Source: an uncultured virus (IMG/VR IMGVR_UViG_3300049576_000013)
Lineage: Duplodnaviria; Heunggongvirae; Uroviricota; Caudoviricetes
Direction: 5' to 3' (one strand)
Virus record (IMG/VR): IMGVR_UViG_3300049576_000013
DNA length: 20,000 nucleotides
The notes under the pieces are model-generated. The model was not told the origin of the DNA and did not search any database. It saw only the letters and a list, made by a program, of their open reading frames with translations. How positions within the stretch are numbered: the first letter of the stretch is position 1; the number at the start of each line of letters is the position of its first letter. Positions 1 to 11,562 of the stretch are shown here, piece after piece. The position numbers were made by a program, and so were the translations under genes.

Positions 1-3000
1 GGTCAGCGGTGTCCAGCTCTCCGCGCAGCGTGGAGTCGATGTCGGCCAATTCCTCCTTGTTGAAGGAGATCTCCGACTCCATGCGCTGGATGCCCTCCTG
101 CGGGGTGATCTTCCCGCTGGAGATGTCATCAATGATCTCGTTGGTAGCCCGCTTCGGGGACCCGTCCCGCATCTTGATGTCGGCGTCGTCCCACGCCTGC
201 TTGAACTCGTTCTTTCGAGGAGCGTTGTCGATCGGCGTCACCGTACGGCTCTCGAAGTCGCCAGCGGGAGGCTCCTCGGCGGCCTCGACGACGCTCTTGC
301 TGAGTCGGATGTCCTCCCCGTCCCGCTGGAGCGTGAGCCCAGGACGGACGATCTGCACGTCCGCGCCTTGGCGGACCTTGCCGATCGCCTCGTGTTGCTT
401 CGGGTCGAACTTGGCCCGGTCGCCGGCCTTGCCGTACGGGGTGATGCCTTCAAGGTCGAGCAGCTTGGCCATCTCGGCGCGGGCCTTGTCCCGGTCGCCC
501 GACTCGATGGCGGAGATGACGGGGCCGAGGTCGAGCCCGCCGGTCGGGCGCGGTGAGGGGTCGTCGATGGCGATGTTGTGCCGGTCCTGATTACCGATGG
601 AGATAGCGGCGTCGCGGTCCGCCTGGGTCAAGGCCGCCTGCTTGTTCTCCGGAACGACGCTCGTGCCGCGATCCTTGGCGTGCAGGCGCAGGATTGCTGC
701 ATCGATCTCGTGGCGGTTGGTGCTCTCGCCGAGTTCTTCGCGCAGGTCGGCAAGGGCCACCAGCTGCGTGTCGCCGGGCCGGGCCTTGCGCCCGTTGCGC
801 GCCAAGACCGCTACGTAGGCCGCCCGCACACGGTTCTCGACGACGATGTCACGGTCCGCACCCCGTTCGGCCGCCGCACGCAGCCGGGACAGGACAGCCC
901 GGTCTGACGCTCCGTTGTGCAGGATCTCGTCCAGCTCGCCGGCGGCAGTCGAGAGCTTGCGGGCTGAGTCGATGGCGGACTGACGGTCGCGGGCGGACTG
1001 CTCGAGGTCGCCAGCCAGGTCCTCGGCATCCTGGAGTTCGGCGAACTCGCGCTCGAGTTTCTTCCGCTCGGGCGAGGGACGCCGGTGCCCCGCCCCGGAG
1101 TCCTGGCGGTAAGCGAGGTTCTTCGCGAACCAGTCGCGCCGATCGTCAATGGACAGCCCCTTCGGGAGCTTGAGCTGGACCTCGCCGCCGCCTGAATACC
1201 GGCTGGCCAGCTTCGCCAACTCGCCGGCGTTGAGATCGGCGATCATGTCGCTGATCTTCTGCTGCCGCTCGGCGCGGTCAGCTCCACGGACGCCAGTCAG
1301 GCGCTCAACCAGCGCATCAAAGTCGGCCGTTTCGGGCTTCAATGGAAGCCCGGAGGAGCGCTTGGTGACGGACTGCTCCCCCAGATCTGGCACTACGACC
1401 AGGGTCTGCGACGGGGATAGACCAGCTACCCCACGAGCACTCTGGTTGATGTTCTCGACCGGATTGCCTTGCTCATCGGTGCCACTGATCCGGATACGCC
1501 CGTTGGTGTCACGATCCACTGAGGTGATGGTGACGATCTTGCCGCCAGTGCGCCGATTGGTGGGCTTGTTCTCCGGAGTGAGCCGTACCCGCATGCCCGG
1601 TTGAAGACGCCCAGCCGTGATCTTCCCGGCCGCAGTGCCAGGTGCCGCACCCGGAACGGCGACCTTGGCCGCCTTCTTAACCGGAGGCGCCTCGGGGACT
1701 CGTGGCTTAGCCCCCTCGGTACGCCGCCCCCGAGTCGACATCTCCTCCAGGATCGTGTTGATGAGCCCGTCCCGGCGCATCTTGTTGATGCTGGTGGCTG
1801 GGGCGATGTCGTTCTCTTTGGCGAAGGCGCGGAGGTCGGCGACGGTCGGCCTCTTGCCACCGAACAATTCCGTGATCTGCTGCTCTTTGTTGGTCGTCGA
1901 CCCAGGCTCAGCTGGAAGGTCCTTGAGCCCTCGAAGCTCCTTCTTCAGCTGATCCTTGGTCATCCGGGAGAGCGGGATGCCACCTCGCTCGGCGGCCAGG
2001 CCACGTTTCTTTGCCTCGGCGTACAGCTCCGCCTTGGTCATCTTGTCCAGGTCATCCCCAGACTCGGGTGCCGCCTTCGCCGGGGAAGCCTTCTTAACCG
2101 GAGCAGCCTTCTTGGCCGCCGCCTTCCGTGGGGCCGGCTTTGTAAGCTGGTCGGCAACCCTGTTCAGGTGGTCGTCTTCGCCACGATCATTTCGAAGGCG
2201 CCGCGCCCCTTCTGCCCGGGAGATCCGCTTACGACGGACCATGTCCATGACGACATTGAGGCCAGTCAGCTCAAACTGGCTCAGATCGCCCTCTTTGATG
2301 CCGGCAGCCTCTAACAGCGGCAGGTACACCTCGCGATTGGCAGTGTCGGCTTCCTCGTTACTTTCGGCAACCCGAGCGTTAGTGCGCTTGGCAGCGGCAC
2401 GCCCTGTTTCGGCAGCAACCTCCCGGGATTGCTCCTGCTCCCGATCAACTTTCTGTTGCTGAGCATCTGTGGGCCGAGTCGCTGCTGCCTTCTTCGCGTT
2501 GCCTCGGTCCTGGCGCCGCTCCTCGGGCGTTGGCCTGATGCCGGGGGAGCGGCGGGCAGGCTTCTTCTCCTCGACTGGGGCCGGCAGGTTGTACTGCTCC
2601 CGGATCAGGTCCCGGAGTTGTTCCTGGGCACGGATGTCATCAGCCAGTTCCTCATCACCCTGGCCAGCCTGGAGCTTGCGCTGGTTGACAGCAATGTCCC
2701 GCTCCAGCTCCCGGACCGAGTCTCGCGGGTCCTTCTTCCCGGTGGCGATGCCCTCGTAGGCGTCGTTGAACTCCTTGCGTCGCGACCCAGCCGAAGGCGC
2801 AGGGATGTTGGCCTCGCGCACGGCGTTGCGGATGTCTACGATCCGTGGAGTCGGTGGCTCTGGCTCCGGTGTAGGGACTGTCTCTTGCCCTATTGCGGGG
2901 GCCGGAGCGGAACCGGGGGCAGGGCCACCGACTGCTCGTGACACCACTGGTTCAGTACGCGGCGGTGGGGTGCCCGGCGGTGCGGGCACCTGCTGCTGCC

Positions 3001-3856
3001 CAGCCCCCTGGGGCATAGCCTGCTGCCGGGCCTGCTCCCGCTGCGCCGCCTCCGCTTCGACCTGGGTGTCGGACTGGATCCGCATCTGGTTCTGCTGAGA
3101 TTGGGTGACTTGGGCGACGCCAGCCTCACGCTGCTCCACGCCGGGCCCAGCGCCAGGGGCGGGGCGCCCGATCGGTTCCGGCGTCTCACCAGGTGTCCGG
3201 TCGGTGGCCACGGCCATGACGTAGTAGCCGCCGGCCCCGTCCGGCGTCACCTTGGTGATGCGGTACTCCTGGTCCCGGTCCAGGATCACTTCCCGGTCCC
3301 CGGGTCCGTCGCCGGGGATGATGGCCTGGGTGCCCTTGGGGACCGCCACAGTCATCAGGATGCCGGTGTTCTGCCCCAGTGGGGTGCCGATGTTGGTGGA
3401 CCCGTAGCCCCGGTCCCCGATCAGCTTGCCGGTGAAGTCTTCGATACCCCCCTCATCCAGGCCCATGGTTTCGGGGGTGAGCCCGAACGCTTCCGGAGTC
3501 ACACGACGGGACACGATGATGTCGTCCGGCAGAGTGACCTTGTTACGGTCCATCATCTGCACGAACTTCTTGGTTGACGCATCCATATCGCCGCGTCGCA
3601 GGGCCTGGTTCGCCGCCGGGTAGTCAGCGGCGAATCGTGGCATGTCTAACCCGCCGCCACCTCGGGGCTTTCGGTTGAAGACGTACTGAGCCGCCTGTTG
3701 GTCGCTGCTGAACGTGCGGGGGTTGAACTTGGCCAGGATGTTGGTGATCGCGTCCACGACACCGGCGGCCATCTTCCACTTGCTACGGAAGCGGCCGTTC
3801 TTGTCGCGGGGGTGCAGCAGTTCCTCGCGAGTACCCCACGAATCACCAAGTCCCAC
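1..3856 (-). CDS. Giant multi-domain (polyvalent) virion-associated protein with N-terminal VIP2-like ADP-ribosyltransferase domain; 3'-truncated by the window edge (>1285 aa)
   Basis: Not in the ORF track because there is no stop in the window. Manual translation from GTG at 3856 (3 nt after the protease stop) stays open to position 2. It begins MGLGDSWGTREELLHPRDKNGRFRSKW. ART-like segment: LPDDIIVSRR...GKLIGDRGYGSTN...LMTVAVPKGTQAII...DREVILDRDQEYRITKV. This is followed by a Q/P-rich linker, a KAAAKKAAPVKK tract, two Rho-N/HeH-like motifs and a GrpE-like FDPKQHEA segment. Confidence 0.9.
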   Translation of the reverse strand, partial: MGLGDSWGTREELLHPRDKNGRFRSKWKMAAGVVDAITNILAKFNPRTFSSDQQAAQYVFNRKPRGGGGLDMPRFAADYPAANQALRRGDMDASTKKFVQMMDRNKVTLPDDIIVSRRVTPEAFGLTPETMGLDEGGIEDFTGKLIGDRGYGSTNIGTPLGQNTGILMTVAVPKGTQAIIPGDGPGDREVILDRDQEYRITKVTPDGAGGYYVMAVATDRTPGETPEPIGRPAPGAGPGVEQREAGVAQVTQSQQNQMRIQSDTQVEAEAAQREQARQQAMPQGAGQQQVPAPPGTPPPRTEPVVSRAVGGPAPGSAPAPAIGQETVPTPEPEPPTPRIVDIRNAVREANIPAPSAGSRRKEFNDAYEGIATGKKDPRDSVRELERDIAVNQRKLQAGQGDEELADDIRAQEQLRDLIREQYNLPAPVEEKKPARRSPGIRPTPEERRQDRGNAKKAAATRPTDAQQQKVDREQEQSREVAAETGRAAAKRTNARVAESNEEADTANREVYLPLLEAAGIKEGDLSQFELTGLNVVMDMVRRKRISRAEGARRLRNDRGEDDHLNRVADQLTKPAPRKAAAKKAAPVKKASPAKAAPESGDDLDKMTKAELYAEAKKRGLAAERGGIPLSRMTKDQLKKELRGLKDLPAEPGSTTNKEQQITELFGGKRPTVADLRAFAKENDIAPATSINKMRRDGLINTILEEMSTRGRRTEGAKPRVPEAPPVKKAAKVAVPGAAPGTAAGKITAGRLQPGMRVRLTPENKPTNRRTGGKIVTITSVDRDTNGRIRISGTDEQGNPVENINQSARGVAGLSPSQTLVVVPDLGEQSVTKRSSGLPLKPETADFDALVERLTGVRGADRAERQQKISDMIADLNAGELAKLASRYSGGGEVQLKLPKGLSIDDRRDWFAKNLAYRQDSGAGHRRPSPERKKLEREFAELQDAEDLAGDLEQSARDRQSAIDSARKLSTAAGELDEILHNGASDRAVLSRLRAAAERGADRDIVVENRVRAAYVAVLARNGRKARPGDTQLVALADLREELGESTNRHEIDAAILRLHAKDRGTSVVPENKQAALTQADRDAAISIGNQDRHNIAIDDPSPRPTGGLDLGPVISAIESGDRDKARAEMAKLLDLEGITPYGKAGDRAKFDPKQHEAIGKVRQGADVQIVRPGLTLQRDGEDIRLSKSVVEAAEEPPAGDFESRTVTPIDNAPRKNEFKQAWDDADIKMRDGSPKRATNEIIDDISSGKITPQEGIQRMESEISFNKEELADIDSTLRGELDTAD

Positions 3857-6160: not shown

Positions 6161-6885
6161 TAGCGTCCCCTCTCGTTCAGAATCGTGAGACTGCACCGGC
6201 AGTTGATCACACTCTCCGGAGGACCGGAAGGGTCGCCGGGAAACATCAACGGCCATCCATCGACGTAGAACGGGTACATTACATCAATCACCCGGCCATC
6301 TACTTCCCGATGCGATCCCCGGACCCGGCTATCGTCCCGGGTGTCCCACCGCTTCTGTAGCACTCGACCAGAAAGTCGAGACTGCTCCACTCCTGCGGCG
6401 AGAGTGCCGGCGCCATAGGCCCGAGTCGTCTCAGTCTGAGCGATTGTGCGAGCCCGAGCAGGCCACCGCTCGGAGGCGGTGTAGCTGAGGACCCGTTCGA
6501 CTCGTTGAGCCACCTCATCAGTGTCAGCACCACCATTCACGGCATCTGTGATCTCCGCGAAGATCAGGTTCGCTACCTCGTCCGGGATACGGACCAGGAA
6601 GTTCTCCGTCTGCGCCAACTGAGCCATGACGAAGGCGTGCCGAGACACCGGAGCCACATCAGAAGCCTGACTCCAGGCGTTCATGGTGATGCGCCCAATG
6701 ACGGTGAGGATGCTGTCCATTTCCGTCACCCAGTCCGACTGGACGCGGTAGACCCGGCTGGGATCGGGTTGGGTTCGGTACTGGCGCCACGGTGCCATGA
6801 CAGCGTCCTTGGCCTTCGCAAGCCAACGGCGAAGGGCCTGGCCCACCACCCCGGCCAGATGCTGCTCATCACTGTCACGCCCCAT
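6160..6885 (-). CDS. MuF-like (phage Mu F / SPP1 gp7 family) minor head protein
   Basis: RARTIAQTETTRAY, KRWDTRDDSRVRGSH, FPGDPSGPPESVINCRC are hallmark MuF motifs. Start overlaps the portal stop. Confidence 0.9.
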   Translation of the reverse strand: MGRDSDEQHLAGVVGQALRRWLAKAKDAVMAPWRQYRTQPDPSRVYRVQSDWVTEMDSILTVIGRITMNAWSQASDVAPVSRHAFVMAQLAQTENFLVRIPDEVANLIFAEITDAVNGGADTDEVAQRVERVLSYTASERWPARARTIAQTETTRAYGAGTLAAGVEQSRLSGRVLQKRWDTRDDSRVRGSHREVDGRVIDVMYPFYVDGWPLMFPGDPSGPPESVINCRCSLTILNERGR

Positions 6886-8776
6886 CGAGCAAACCTCGCC
6901 GTCGCAGGTACTCGCCGAGGAGCTGAACGGTGTGAGCCTGCTCCCGAATGAGCAGCGTGAAGCAGTAGTCGTGCAGAGCGTCCTTCAAGGCACCTGTGTC
7001 CAGCTCAGGGTCGACCGCCTCGGCCAGGACCGATAGGTGGTCCCAGGCGCCGTCGAGGAGCTGGGTGGCGTGCGGCGGCGTAGCCACCTTGATCCGGGTG
7101 TGCAGTTCGTAGGCCGGCACATCAGGCCAATGGTTGCGGTTGGCCCGGTTGAGGAGGCGGCGGCCAGCCCGCTCCAGGGCACGGAGGCAGGTGGCGTTAG
7201 CCAGCACGAAGGTGTTTACTGATGCCGGCACGGAGGCGCTGGCCGTGACGCCAGAAGGTACGTCGGGGGGGCCGCCTGGGGCGTTTTGAGCCTCCGTGGC
7301 CAGGGGCATGGGGCCACCTGCGGTCGGGGAAATGCCAGTGGGTGGCGCTGGCGGCGGCGGTGGCCCCGCCCCTGGCGTTCCCGGCGCCGGTGCAATGACG
7401 GTGTTGGCGGGCAAGATTTCTTCGGTGTACCCAGCCACCTTTCGAACGGCTGGGTTCTGGAGTAGGGCCGGGTCCCGGAGCATCAGCTCGCGGGTGAACC
7501 GCATCAGGTCTTCTTCGTCGCTGGGTGCATCGCTGATCTTGTAGTCACCAGCGAGAAGCACGGTCTCCCGACTAACCAACCCCTTCTCGTACATCTCCCG
7601 GGTGTCCTTCAGGCGCTCCGGGCGCACGGTGAGGGGGGCAGTGTCATACCAGAAGACGTACTTGTCCGGGTTCTCCTTGATCGCCTTCAGGGCCGGTTGC
7701 AGGTACGCCGTGGTGAGTGCGTCACAGATCCGTACCATGAGGGGGACAATGTGGACATTGATCTGCCCCTCGACGATTTGCCAGGCTCCCCAGTGATTCG
7801 CCTCCCCGGCCCCCGTGAGGATGGACGGTTCAATGTCCATGGCCAGGGCCAGCCGCCGGATCGCCTCAGCGCGGAGGTCGAGTGCCTGACGAGACAACTC
7901 CCCGCCGAACTGCACCAGGTTGATCTTCCCCAGCGCCTCCATCGGCATCTCCATGACGATGGGAGCAATCCCAGCCGCAGTCCCTTCACCCTGGAGTGAG
8001 GCGGACCCAGTCCGCACCAGGATGTCAGTCAGATTCTCTGAGGCGGACAGGGTGGGGTCTTCCTCGCTGAACGACACCTCCTTAGGGATCGGCAGCAAGC
8101 CAGCGGAGAACAGCCGGGAGTCGATCTGGGCGAACACGTAGCGGGTCAGTCGCTCGATCTCCCACAGCATCGGAAGGCCAGCCTTGGTGGGCGAATCAGC
8201 CCATAGTGCCCGGCGCGGATGGGGGGTCCACACCCGGATGATCAGATCCTTGCGAGGGTCAATCATCTCCTTGGTGCCGTCCGGATTGAGTTGCGCGATG
8301 TTGGAGCCCCACCGCTTCAGTTCAGATGTGGAGACGATGCTCCACTCATCGGACTCAGGGTTGCTGGCACTGCGTCCGACGATGAAGGCTTCCCCGGCCA
8401 CGCTCAGATTGATGCCGAGCATCCGCAACGCCTCGGCTTTGGCCGGGGGGCCGCCGAACAAGGTGTCAGCCAGGCCGGCCACCTTCTTCTTGGTGACCTC
8501 CTTCTGCACCCGGCCGTTGTCGTCTACCTCGGCCACATAGATACGGACCCGGGAGCACGCTGAGCCCACCCAGTTGGCAATGAACCGAAGCTCGCCCACG
8601 ATGTCGTAGAGGCGCCACGCCTCGGTCTGCCAGGTGTCGTCACCGAACTTGTACTGGCGCCAGGCCAAGCCATCCATCTTGATGCGAGCAGCCGAGGCAA
8701 TGAGGCTTTTCGGTGCCTCGTGGGGCAGTGGCTCCTCAACGGGCTCAATCTCTCGACGCCTGCCCCAGCGGGCCAT
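6875..8776 (-). CDS. Portal protein
   Basis: 633 aa between terminase and MuF. WQTEAWRLYDIVGELRF..NW...SR, RVWTPHPRR...ADSP and NHWGAWQI motifs resemble actinophage portals. Pro-rich C-terminal extension. Confidence 0.85.
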   Translation of the reverse strand: MARWGRRREIEPVEEPLPHEAPKSLIASAARIKMDGLAWRQYKFGDDTWQTEAWRLYDIVGELRFIANWVGSACSRVRIYVAEVDDNGRVQKEVTKKKVAGLADTLFGGPPAKAEALRMLGINLSVAGEAFIVGRSASNPESDEWSIVSTSELKRWGSNIAQLNPDGTKEMIDPRKDLIIRVWTPHPRRALWADSPTKAGLPMLWEIERLTRYVFAQIDSRLFSAGLLPIPKEVSFSEEDPTLSASENLTDILVRTGSASLQGEGTAAGIAPIVMEMPMEALGKINLVQFGGELSRQALDLRAEAIRRLALAMDIEPSILTGAGEANHWGAWQIVEGQINVHIVPLMVRICDALTTAYLQPALKAIKENPDKYVFWYDTAPLTVRPERLKDTREMYEKGLVSRETVLLAGDYKISDAPSDEEDLMRFTRELMLRDPALLQNPAVRKVAGYTEEILPANTVIAPAPGTPGAGPPPPPAPPTGISPTAGGPMPLATEAQNAPGGPPDVPSGVTASASVPASVNTFVLANATCLRALERAGRRLLNRANRNHWPDVPAYELHTRIKVATPPHATQLLDGAWDHLSVLAEAVDPELDTGALKDALHDYCFTLLIREQAHTVQLLGEYLRRRGLLDGA

Positions 8777-9081
8777 TAGCTACCCCACTTGTTCAGAAGA
8801 CCAGCCACCATTGAGGCAGCGGGGATCGCCAGTATGGCCAACACGATCCCTTCCAGCGTCCAGCCGGTCATAGCAAGGACGGCCAGCGGCATGACGAGGA
8901 GGCTGATCCAGATGGAGGTGCACCACGGGCAGTGGGCGAAGTAGGCAGTCTTCGATTCTTCACCGAATCGCTTCACGACCCAACGTCGGATGCCGATCGT
9001 TATCTCGTCGTCAACGAGGAGACGCGTCAGTCGCGCGACTGCGAGCATCCCTACAAGGAGCGATACGATCAACACCCCCAT
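8776..9081 (-). CDS. Small two-TM membrane protein (DUF1360-like)
   Basis: LAVARLTRLLVDDEIT..IR...CPWCTSIW motif and hydrophobic helices. Stop overlaps the portal ATG (TAATG). Confidence 0.8.
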   Translation of the reverse strand: MGVLIVSLLVGMLAVARLTRLLVDDEITIGIRRWVVKRFGEESKTAYFAHCPWCTSIWISLLVMPLAVLAMTGWTLEGIVLAILAIPAASMVAGLLNKWGS

Positions 9082-9131
9082 AGCCTAAAGGTGAAACTCC
9101 TGCAAGGGGTAGACGCCACTTAGGTGGGGAC

Positions 9132-9160
9132 TTGCCCCCCAGGGGTCCCTGTGCTAGTGT
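9132..9160 (+). promoter_or_regulatory. Sigma70/SigA-type promoter in front of the pentamer array
   Basis: TTGCCC-17 bp-TAGTGT with extended -10 TG. Shares GGACTTGC and TCCCTGTGCTA.TGT with the promoter at 15889-15916. Confidence 0.6.
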
Positions 9161-9161
9161 C

Positions 9162-9614
9162 TGACAGGTCACGTTCCCCTGACCTGTCACATCCGCCCCA
9201 CCCTCTTCGATCCTGCCCGGATCCGACAACCCATACCCACCCCGTATCGAGCCCGACAACTCCGACTATCCGGCTCACCTCGCCACGACCTCTCTACCCA
9301 GCCCAGTTCGACTGCCCGACGCTGGCCCCCTCGTTCCAGCTCCTTAACGACACGCCGGACCACATCTGACCCGGCCGATTGACCGACCGCACCACACCAG
9401 TCCTCTTCGACGTCTCAGGCCGTTTCCACTCAGGCCGACATACCCACTCCGCCCAACTCACCTCGATTGACTTGCCAGTTCACGTCGCCCCGTCGCCCGG
9501 CCGACATGTCATCTCGCTCCAACTCAGACCGGAACAGGCCCGACGCACCAGCCCCACCCCCTCCAATCCGATCCGACAGCTCATGCCCACCCGCGCCCAC
9601 TCAATACAAACGAC
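9162..9614 (+). repeat. Non-coding array with 5-nt periodicity: 14 units of YGAC-NNN-(YCNNN)n-N0-2
   Basis: YGAC anchors at 9162, 9180, 9224, 9263, 9286, 9309, 9348, 9380, 9408, 9436, 9468, 9502, 9541, 9574 and 9611. By manual parse, 65 of 67 pentamers have C at position 2 and 60 of 67 have a pyrimidine at position 1. Confidence 0.85.
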
Positions 9615-11028
9615 TAAGGTCATACGCACTCTGGTCCATATGCAACTCGTAGCGGCTCGGATCACCGAGCCGCATTTTTTTGCGCTCACCAGACATGAGA
9701 TGGATCGAGGCGTGGACGAGGGCGTCCATCCGGTCGGGACTCTCCCGAGTAGACGTGGGGTCATAGAGAACCATCTGATTCTCCAGTTCATCCCAGGTGC
9801 CCACCATGTGCAGGCGCCCTTGCTCTGAGCGCATAGCCACTGGTTCAGCTCGTGTCTTCTTGCCGTGCTTGGCGTGTACCGGCTTCATCGGTGGCGTGGT
9901 ACCGCGCGGGAACATCCCCAGCTCCACGCACTCCTGATAGGCGTCTTGAAGCACCTCGTGGAGGTACCGCTTCCCTAGGTTCTCCTCATATACCAGGATG
10001 TCGGCGGCGAACTCAGCCACCGCCCGCCAGGCAGCCAGAGCCGCTGCTCGTCCTGACTCACTGACAGTTCGATCGGCCAGGACGTAGTGGTGATTGTCCT
10101 TGTCCCGGCCCACCACCACGATGCCGGTCTGGGCATCTTCACCGGTCAGGTTGGGGTCCATTCCGACCACGGTGGAGATCAGCACCTCGGGCACTGTGTT
10201 GAGCCGATACTTAACCAGGTCCATGCGCCGGAACAGTCCACCGCCGGTCAGCTCCAGTAGCTTGCCGTACAGCTCCTGCTCGCCCAGCGCCGTGCCGGCG
10301 TAGCGGATCTTCAGCTCGGCCAGGGCGTGCTTGGACAAGTTGACTGCGTTGTCGAAGGTCGAGCCAGTGATGATATGAATGGTGCCGTCATCCCGGGCCA
10401 ACCACTCCATCAGGAGTTTGATCGGTTTCGGTGTGGTGGTGACGAAAGCACGGGGGTGGTCGTTGATCAAGTCAGCTCTGAGGGCTGGCAGCAGGCCCTC
10501 ATACCAGGTCTCGTAGGGCTTGACCCACTTCGCCATCTCGTCACAGAGCACACCTGCGGCGTTGTACCCACGTCCCGTATCTGGATCATCCGCCCCCTCC
10601 AAGTAGATCTTGGAGCCGTCAGGGAACAGGACCATGGGGCGAGGACTCTGCTTGTAACGGTGATCGATGCGGCGCCGCTGAAGAACGTTCAGGATCCCAC
10701 TGGGACCTTCGGCATTGATGGTGCGGGCATCGGCCAAGGTGTCGGCGACCACCAACCACTCCGTGGGCACACCAGACCGGTCATAGGGGTGGCGGAGGAC
10801 TCGGTCTACAACCCATTCGGACCCAGCCCTGGACTTCCCAGCCCCTCGGCCAGCCATGTAGAGGTAGACCAACTCGTCACCCTCGGGCGGTATCTGCTCC
10901 GGCCGGGCGACGTACCACCATTCTCCCCGGTTCATTTCCATGAGCGCTTGTTCAGGGAGTCGACTGATGAACTCGACCCGCTCGGAGACAGGGAGCATGG
11001 CCAGCCGCTGCTTCATGGACAGGCCCAT
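9601..11028 (-). CDS. terL: Terminase large subunit
   Basis: Walker A AGRGAGKS, Walker B VLCDE, TTTP coupling motif, RNase H-like nuclease VVGMDP...ESPDRMDA. Likely start is ATG 11028 (or 11037); the ORF-track extension to 11415 overlaps the divergent gene. Confidence 0.93.
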   Translation of the reverse strand: MGLSMKQRLAMLPVSERVEFISRLPEQALMEMNRGEWWYVARPEQIPPEGDELVYLYMAGRGAGKSRAGSEWVVDRVLRHPYDRSGVPTEWLVVADTLADARTINAEGPSGILNVLQRRRIDHRYKQSPRPMVLFPDGSKIYLEGADDPDTGRGYNAAGVLCDEMAKWVKPYETWYEGLLPALRADLINDHPRAFVTTTPKPIKLLMEWLARDDGTIHIITGSTFDNAVNLSKHALAELKIRYAGTALGEQELYGKLLELTGGGLFRRMDLVKYRLNTVPEVLISTVVGMDPNLTGEDAQTGIVVVGRDKDNHHYVLADRTVSESGRAAALAAWRAVAEFAADILVYEENLGKRYLHEVLQDAYQECVELGMFPRGTTPPMKPVHAKHGKKTRAEPVAMRSEQGRLHMVGTWDELENQMVLYDPTSTRESPDRMDALVHASIHLMSGERKKMRLGDPSRYELHMDQSAYDLSRLY

Positions 11029-11145
11029 GGCGATCATGTTAAGCCGATTCTTGTCAGCCCCCCCCTCTAGGCTCTGTCTCGGTGGGTCAGGGAGGGCTAC
11101 CCTGTTGGGCATCTCCCCTCGGATCTGCCAGGAAGAAGGACTGCC

Positions 11146-11562
11146 TTGTCGCAATCGGACATCGAACTGGGGCGCGAAGTGGTGCGGTCCGGGAAGCTCC
11201 AGGAGCTCCGATCGCAGCTGGGACTGAGCCGCAACGCCATGGCGGAACTGCTTCACACCGCTGCCCTGACCTACACGTCCTGGGAGAAGCGGCCAGAGAC
11301 CAACCTGTGGCCGAGCACTGCCGAGAAGGTGGGTCGCTTCTACCGAGTGGCCACGGAGGAGATCTTGCTGATGACTCAAGCCGGTCTCAAGGTGAACGAA
11401 CTGATGCCGTTCCATCTAGTGGCCACCCAGCTAGGACTGCCTCAGGAGACCCTGTTCGGAATGTACCGAGATGGACTAATTGAGGCCGTGGACGGAGGGA
11501 TTCTGGGGCTGTGGGTGGAGCGGGAGCAGTTGGAGCGCTACCGAGCGGGCGTGTGGACCTGA
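11146..11562 (+). CDS. Helix-turn-helix DNA-binding protein (XRE-like N-terminal HTH plus a second HTH-like segment)
   Basis: LQELRSQLGLSRNAMAELL...TYTSWE is an XRE pattern; second segment is MPFHLVATQLGLPQETL. TTG start with GAAGGA RBS. Confidence 0.8.
   Translation: MSQSDIELGREVVRSGKLQELRSQLGLSRNAMAELLHTAALTYTSWEKRPETNLWPSTAEKVGRFYRVATEEILLMTQAGLKVNELMPFHLVATQLGLPQETLFGMYRDGLIEAVDGGILGLWVEREQLERYRAGVWT

Follow-up and report, generated by a model that had tools for sequence, protein, structure and literature searches.

The window analysed here, the whole 20,000-nt stretch of DNA, is a high-GC (about 63%) tailed-phage segment. Its minus strand encodes a terminase large subunit (terL), a small DUF1360 membrane protein and a portal protein (Table 1), together with a MuF-like protein and further large ORFs, while the plus strand from 11511 onwards encodes a PD-(D/E)XK exonuclease, a Prim-Pol/D5 primase-helicase and ParB-like genes. 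The terminase and DUF1360 genes are separated by a 520-nt gap, and in this gap sits a non-coding array with a five-base period, the last unit of which overlaps the terL stop codon (9601-9603). A megablast search of the array region against cultured phages gave no match. Two observations concern the flanking genes themselves. At its N terminus, the terL product has about 130-160 extra residues, a stretch that its homologues do not cover, and a small-terminase gene is absent upstream of terL, where a divergent promoter gap (11416-11510) comes next. Downstream of the portal and MuF genes, residues 96-209 of a 1285-aa open-ended ORF (2-3856, minus strand) match a PHROG labelled ADP-ribosyltransferase exoenzyme toxin (1.7e-10); judged by this match, the segment may be a MuF-associated cargo domain.

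Table 1. Features of the array locus in the window, and members of a 171-186-aa protein family found in relatives.
Feature	Position	Strand	Description
Portal protein	6875..8776	-	phrog_776 1.2e-149
DUF1360 small membrane protein	8776..9081	-	Pfam PF07098 4.3e-07; phrog_781; first gene past the array in the late direction
Promoter-like block	9082-9105	-	TTGNNN, 12-nt spacer, TANNCT-like hexamer; ends at the DUF1360 ATG
Promoter-like element	9132..9160	+	-35 TTGCCC (9132-9137), 17-nt spacer, -10 TAGTGT (9155-9160); directed into the array
Period-5 array	9162..9614	+	units YGAC + NNN + (YC NNN)n; same grammar in relatives
Perfect inverted repeat, 10 + 10 nt, 8-nt gap	9162-9171 / 9180-9189		starts one base after the -10; overlaps units 1-2 of the earlier parse
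Terminase large subunit (terL)	9601..11415	-	Pfam Terminase_6N 1.3e-18, Terminase_6C 5.7e-08; PHROGs; 3' end overlapped by the far end of the array
Intrinsic terminator	9652..9681	+	9-bp stem (8 G-C pairs), 4-nt loop, then A + T7; antisense within the terL 3' end
171-186-aa family members	L044:5494-6054, L037:12428-12943, L040:3822-4355		

A sequence-only reading of this DNA had parsed the array on the plus strand into 14 units, each composed of YGAC, three further bases and n pentamers (n = 2,7,6,3,3,6,5,4,4,5,5,6,5,6). This parse was reproduced exactly and yields 67 pentamers with C at position 2 in 65/67; a recount also agreed on a pyrimidine at position 1 (60/67) and on mixed bases at positions 3-5. 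About a dozen units are well formed, with lengths of 23-39 nt each and starts at 9224, 9263, 9286, 9309, 9348, 9380, 9408, 9436, 9468, 9502, 9541 and 9574. Units 1 and 2 (9162-9223), however, overlap the inverted repeat and may not be guides. YGAC occurs 19 times in the array region, more often than the 14 units require, since some sites lie inside units.

Independently of any hand parse, C is found at +8, +13 and so on from each YGAC to the next in 62/68 cases (0.91), compared with 0.46 ± 0.06 in dinucleotide-preserving shuffles, of which 0/2000 reach the observed value; this is in keeping with the earlier proposal that the phase is set by YGAC. The lag-5 identity of the array is 0.395 versus 0.309 ± 0.020 in shuffles (z = 4.4; 0/2000 as high), and it was matched at any lag from 2 to 30 in only 2/2000 shuffles. 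When all 450-nt windows of the 20 kb were ranked by their lag-5 score, six of the top seven overlapped 9100-9900. The comparison with shuffles that the sequence-only reading had proposed thus came out in favour of the period, which confirms that the five-base-periodic array is real. Read on the minus strand, the grammar becomes (G R N N N)n G T C R, and it is GTCR that fixes the phase. The pattern (GRNNN)≥3 GTCR has 13 minus-strand matches in the window, 12 of them within 9223-9602, and 15 on both strands taken together versus 1.8 expected from block shuffles. Across 17 window units, G occupies positions -5, -10 ... -25 from GTCR in 78-100%, followed by a purine, the other three positions being free.

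The earlier proposal of a promoter ahead of the array was supported by an alignment of seven relatives that carry an array at the terL-portal site, in which the -10 hexamer is conserved as TANNNT in 7/7 and a TTGCCC-like -35 is present in 5/7. Relatives in which this site has no array are also devoid of the element; in the window, it went undetected in a simple sigma-70 scan. Judged by its position, the inverted repeat that follows is a candidate operator, or could form a 5' hairpin of the array transcript; in the relative L002, a different inverted repeat occupies the equivalent place. The terminator stem is kept in L002, with a T5 run. The array promoter stands back-to-back with the promoter-like block that points in the portal direction. 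This block is conserved in all relatives, and its 12-nt spacing is unusual for a sigma-70-type promoter. An Rfam search returned nothing relevant, the sole match being a sub-threshold sRNA over the terminator (E 0.083); because no hammerhead was found, processing by interspersed ribozymes is unsupported here.

With the portal protein, we retrieved 26 viral loci. Arrays of the same grammar and of about 80 to 520 nt are present at the terL-portal site of L002, L009/L010/L011, L013, L014, L025 and L012, and the site lacks an array in L004/5/7, L018/19/22/23, L017/20/21/24 and L026. L002, with 95% portal identity, carries an array of about 520 nt which shares with the window the flanks and the first unit, the remaining units being unalignable. 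In 47 units from six relatives, G is found at the phase-1 position in 81-97% at -5 to -25 and in 72% at -30, again followed by a purine and three free bases. The larger arrays have unit lengths that are quantised at 28/29, 33/34 and 38/39 nt, with C at +8 ... +33 in 83-100%, and in 28- and 33-nt units the last fixed C is also the first base of the next CGAC; these quantised lengths fit the view that YGAC marks unit boundaries. Guide content is hypervariable. A comparison of 348 guides from 67 sources showed that practically none are shared between phages, and cross-source pairs with three or fewer mismatches were found only between the window and G003 (3 of 18) and between L090 and L093 (2 of 15), besides identical guides in three source pairs, which we took as near-duplicate records. 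The locus comparison suggested by the sequence-only reading therefore revealed a grammar that is kept and variable bases that are entirely different.

These comparisons bear on the trivial possibility that the array is low-complexity DNA, whether selectively neutral, biased in composition or produced by slippage. Its strong C bias (209 C vs 80 G) is the point in favour, but we find this explanation hardly credible: the phase is tied to a mark of 4 nt, units come in discrete lengths, none of the dinucleotide shuffles attains the observed signal, and phages that share 50-95% protein identity keep the grammar but differ at the free positions. As for the site itself, L016 has a tRNA-Met gene (L016:5210-5284) in the terL-portal gap in place of the array, which marks the gap as a hot spot of accessory insertion; an Ig-like gene is also found in the gap in L012, L014 and L025.

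Six relatives are near-complete (G002, G006, G007, G008, G009 and G010). Arrays occur at at least five sites in G002 (about 3430-3700, 10800-10900, 46200-46440, 51480-51700 and 55260-55370; L028-L030) and at five sites in G009 (L040-L043), and they amount to 0.8 kb in G008 and 1.8 kb in G010, while G006 and G007 have none. All arrays of G002 and of G009 share one genomic orientation regardless of the direction of the flanking genes. One of the G002 arrays (51480-51700; L030:11480-11700) lies in frame inside the primase-helicase ORF, in the linker between Prim-Pol and D5_N; it is C-rich on the coding strand, and its phase-1 G is present in 7/7, 6/7, 7/7 and 5/5 per unit. The possibility that the 859-aa ORF crossing this array represents two genes was ruled out, since it aligns to the window primase as one protein. 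The window primase shows a 52-residue alignment gap where the linker of the G002 primase carries the array.

Clustering of all called proteins from the six genomes identified one gene family that is present in 4/4 array-bearing relatives (G002, G008, G009, G010) and in 0/2 array-less ones. A tblastn search agreed on its presence in the former four and did not find the gene in the window or in G003, G004, G005, G006 and G007. The statement of the sequence-only reading that no RAMP/Cas7-like gene is recognisable in the window thus holds, and the gene, which encodes a RAMP protein as set out below, adjoins the main arrays of the near-complete array-bearing relatives. It lies in their early region, directly 3' of the main array and on the strand on which the array is C-rich; between the array and the RAMP ATG there is nothing but a ribosome-binding site, and the array is closely preceded by the end of another gene. 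In three of the four RAMP-bearing relatives (not G002), a gene of a 171-186-aa family without Pfam match (Table 1) is found immediately before the main array, and by its position it is a candidate accessory (vap-like) gene.

The link to this gene helps to judge whether the array could act at the level of DNA without guide function, as a pac or small-terminase binding site, a GTC priming hot spot, or a G-quadruplex or i-motif tract. In favour of such an element, the array adjoins the terminase gene, the arrays of one genome share strand orientation whatever the local gene direction, and GG-N3 repeats could form two-tetrad quadruplexes. We nevertheless consider a DNA element very improbable, given that arrays occur at several other sites with the largest beside the RAMP gene, that their presence or absence tracks this gene, and that hypervariability between 95%-identical phages would not be expected of a binding site. 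A Rho-binding (rut-like) sponge RNA, T7-type GTC priming, Chi-like sites and a diversity-generating retroelement were also considered and rejected, as none explains the RAMP link or the quantised units.

The RAMP protein of the relatives has 233-243 aa. Its family comprises 991 homologues at E ≤ 0.001 among 1632 candidates; among the matches listed, none has a Pfam domain and all are unnamed or termed 'hypothetical protein'. Searches of Pfam, NCBIfam and PHROGs with the RAMP and with its upstream partner family returned nothing, as did a PDB sequence search with the four-sequence family profile (A1), and no other G002 protein matched a Cas or RAMP family. A structural model built on 37 sequences (pLDDT 76, pTM 0.69) was matched by Foldseek to type VII Cas7 (E 2.5e-07) and Csm3 (9.7e-07) with a probability of 1.00, and by VIA-align to type VII Cas7 (Z 11.0, rmsd 4.5, 143 aligned) and to Csm3 (Z 10.2 and 9.7). 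The best 30 VIA-align matches are without exception CRISPR RAMP proteins of the Cas5/6/7 type, fusions with a Cas7 domain included. According to the model, the partner found in relatives folds as a stand-alone Cas7-type RAMP outside any CRISPR-cas locus; the search for a Cas7-fold partner by structure prediction and Foldseek that had been suggested earlier was thus successful in array-bearing relatives. The protein has a C-terminal G-rich loop, NGLGASRSQGYG, which aligns with the G-loop of the Vipr protein of phage SUSP1; in hhalign, the G-loop region alone was aligned, with a probability of 0.35% and E 0.17.

When modelled in three copies, the RAMP reached a self-association score of 0.59, compared with 0.00 for the best of three controls, with a head-to-tail interface, agreement between runs in at least 73% of contacts and a partner pLDDT of at least 73. 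This mark is reached by 20/30 proteins solved as one-chain pairs and by 1/23 solved as single chains; Cas7 filaments have already been solved, so the pass may reflect likeness only. The earlier idea of an RNA coated by a protein oligomer fits the Cas7 fold of the relatives' RAMP and its modelled head-to-tail self-association.

VIPR was described in 2026 as a lone minimal RAMP (Vipr), usually with an accessory gene, and vrRNAs (bioRxiv 10.64898/2026.04.26.720920). The likeness to VIPR that the sequence-only reading had noted, with a different consensus, is borne out in that the literature confirms the system and the consensus here is YC/NNN, not GGY/NN. According to the accessible text of that preprint, VIPR is a CRISPR-related RNA-guided silencer of phages, with silencing of rival elements shown for GGY/NN systems, and vrRNAs consist of 9-16 YNNGG repeats and a 3' tail, in which NN read DNA and one base is skipped. 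The same text catalogues 667 systems, confirms only types II, III and V by small-RNA sequencing, and mentions repeats of the forms NNNGG, YNNNG and NNNNG as well as arrays that abut ('staggered') or are interspersed with ribozymes. Further preprints report, in their accessible parts, that one protomer binds one repeat (10.64898/2026.04.26.720927), that solo vrRNAs are carried by vipr-less phages and satellites, including in the SUSP1 family (10.64898/2026.10.15.759431), and that non-GGY motifs lie beside Vipr-like folds (Evo-PIN/COMPASS; bioRxiv 10.64898/2026.10.21.760802).

The system resembles VIPR type II, as represented in those texts by Escherichia phage SUSP1 and a Pseudomonas fulva prophage (Vipr, vap1 and vrRNAs), in that it is phage-encoded, has a lone minimal RAMP with a G-loop and advances in 5-nt steps with fixed and hypervariable parts. 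The SUSP1 locus consists of a promoter, vrRNA1, vipr (195 aa), vap1 and vrRNA2-4, all on the same strand; likewise, an array here lies beside and co-oriented with the RAMP gene and further arrays lie away from it, the window array being a distal one. In contrast to the published description of type II, each step has two fixed bases and three free ones (YC/NNN or GR/NNN), where GGY/NN has three and two, C takes the place of G as the fixed base on the gene strand, and units comprise 5-7 steps and a 4-nt mark instead of 9-16 steps followed by a structured pseudoknot tail tens of nt long. The RAMP is longer than SUSP1 Vipr (see above), to which it has no significant sequence similarity, and the G-loop residues reported for SUSP1 to read G1 and G2 (D177 and W178; 10.64898/2026.04.26.720927, accessible part) are A and S at the aligned positions.

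A canonical GGY fixed part is thus absent, the third position not being pyrimidine-specific. Since the accessible preprint text allows a related consensus (NNNGG, YNNNG, NNNNG), the non-GGY pattern excludes the canonical types but not the VIPR family. An invariant structured 3' tail is absent as well, with only the 4-nt YGAC/GTCR mark between units; as far as their description goes, 'staggered' arrays also seem to be without separate tails (10.64898/2026.04.26.720920). Compared by text description, the minus-strand NNNGR pattern and the abutting of units without spacer resemble the 'staggered' NNNGG/YNNNG/NNNNG variants, and the C shared at the joints of 28- and 33-nt units recalls the '1 nt overlapping' wording used for them. 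The Evo-PIN/COMPASS clusters (10.64898/2026.10.21.760802) are similar in their period of 5, their non-GGY fixed parts and their place beside a Vipr-like fold; the motifs named in the accessible text are of the trinucleotide/NN form (GAC/NN, CAC/NN, WGT/NN, TGH/NN) with about 10 repeats, and YC/NNN is not among them. Arrays away from, or without, a vipr gene are shared with the solo vrRNAs (10.64898/2026.10.15.759431, accessible part), with the difference that the gene is lost there, whereas the relatives studied here keep it and scatter extra arrays.

The best structural matches of the RAMP, type VII Cas7 and type III Csm3/Cmr4, form the backbone of class 1 CRISPR systems, a filament along the guide with a fixed step, and the modelled head-to-tail self-interface is a further likeness. 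Unlike in CRISPR, there are no CRISPR repeats or other cas genes, the step is 5 nt rather than 6 nt, and fixed bases lie inside the guide. The only repeated elements of the array are the 4-nt mark and the 2-nt fixed pair, and the only cas-type gene in the window is the Cas4-like PD-(D/E)XK exonuclease, which is typical of phage replication modules.

The orientation of arrays relative to the RAMP gene was examined in 50 viral loci encoding the RAMP, which were retrieved with the family alignment. At least three (NNNYC)≥5 runs on the same strand were present in 38/50 loci, mostly ending 19-90 nt before the ATG, compared with at least three opposite-strand runs in only 4/50. The fixed base on the RAMP gene strand is probably C. 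A canonical terminator just 3' of the array was found in 4/80 cases on the C-rich strand and in 0/80 on the G-rich strand, and in G002 the C-rich strand is the sense strand of the neighbouring genes in 4/5 arrays, one of them within a plus-strand ORF. By analogy with SUSP1 and from the operon packing, the C-rich strand is expected to give the RNA of this clade, and we judge it probable, from the arrangement of these loci, that the functional RNA of the window array is the C-rich plus strand.

Alternatively, the same VIPR-type array could have its functional RNA on the G-rich minus strand, as (GRNNN)n with a 3' GUCR, transcribed by read-through of the late operon or from an unseen promoter and ordered, like the published guides, as repeats followed by a 3' tail. 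In its favour, published vrRNAs are G-based with the constant part 3' of the repeats, and NNNGG, YNNNG and NNNNG repeats in abutting 'staggered' arrays are reported (both in the accessible text of 10.64898/2026.04.26.720920); the phase of the G-rich strand is anchored to GTCR on its 3' side, and as the G-rich strand is the terL-portal sense strand at the window site, read-through could also yield a G-rich RNA. We regard a G-rich guide as unlikely, because it is the C-rich strand that is co-oriented with the RAMP gene and with the neighbours in G002, and because no space is left for a divergent promoter between the array and the RAMP ATG. The window promoter and terminator both lie on the plus strand, and L012, L014 and L025 have a terminator hairpin on the late sense strand before the array and a portal-direction promoter after it. 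The G-rich RNA would also be heavily folded (-173 kcal/mol, z -1.62), compared with a weakly folded C-rich RNA (-82.7 kcal/mol, z +1.85).

Taken together, the grammar, its recurrence in relatives, the co-occurrence with a RAMP of Cas7 fold and the strand co-orientation argue for a VIPR-type system, and we consider it likely that 9162-9614 is a distal guide-RNA array of such a system, situated between terminase and portal. By comparison with the relatives, this phage would encode its RAMP elsewhere in the genome. The array could also be an orphan ('solo') one, in a phage that has no RAMP gene and redirects or borrows the RAMP of a co-infecting relative: solo vrRNAs exist in the SUSP1 family (10.64898/2026.10.15.759431, accessible text), the window contains no RAMP gene, and promoter, array and terminator form an autonomous cassette. 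We find an orphan array distinctly improbable, as the gene is present in all four near-complete array-bearing relatives and the window spans structural and replication parts only, whereas the relatives' RAMP gene lies in the early region.

For the preferred reading, a distal guide array with its RAMP encoded elsewhere, we propose the following working model. The array would be transcribed on the plus strand from its own promoter, antisense to the late terL-portal genes, and transcription would end at the terminator within the terL 3' end. The C-rich, weakly structured transcript would be cut at or near each YGAC, giving RNAs of about 28-39 nt. The RAMP, encoded next to the main array, would polymerise on this RNA with one protomer per pentamer, holding the YC pair and exposing the NNN triplets. 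A rival mobile element whose DNA carries a matching gapped sequence would then be recognised by the 15-21 exposed bases and silenced, by comparison with GGY/NN VIPR. Beyond the window, we lean slightly towards the view that this RAMP clade uses a mirror VIPR code, in which guides are C-rich and start with CGAC, YC is held and three bases are exposed per 5-nt step, with scattered promoter-array-terminator cassettes that run antisense to late genes and, in one lineage, sit in frame in the primase.

The gapped-pattern search for targets that the sequence-only reading had suggested gave no support for recognition of related phages. We searched both strands with 188 guides of at least six triplets, allowing 0, 1, 2 or 3 skipped bases, against 0.87 Mb of related phage DNA in which arrays were masked, and matches were no better than those of a reversed-order control. 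Nor had a previous search of 0.52 Mb with 104 guides shown any enrichment. One 15-of-15 match at skip 3 was dismissed, as it is within chance for the number of tests.

While the kind of system is known from the 2026 preprints, its 2+3 code, short CGAC mark, abutting units, C-rich orientation and scattered arrays are unusual. VIPR has been characterised for GGY/NN guides, and the known code would be broadened by a large clade whose steps combine two fixed with three free bases and seem to be anchored on C. If the mirror code is true, a different targeting rule is predicted, because three read bases per step cannot follow the xNN codon-wobble logic unchanged. Such a code would be intermediate between GGY/NN VIPR, with 2 of 5 bases exposed, and CRISPR Cas7, with 5 of 6 exposed, and would bring a form lying between the two into the debate on CRISPR origins. 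The scattered arrays, of which one runs antisense within a late operon and another is embedded in a coding gene, are relevant to the spread and expression of such arrays.

These points are made bench-testable by a cultured carrier. A tblastn search of 50,697 phage records found one cultured phage with the RAMP, Microcystis phage Mae-JY09 (PP395641.1, L102), in which the RAMP gene (37713-38459) is followed by a same-strand CGAC(NNNCC)n array and then by a hairpin. The G+C content of Microcystis hosts is low; that of the Mae-JY09 record is 72%, which seems high for a Microcystis phage.
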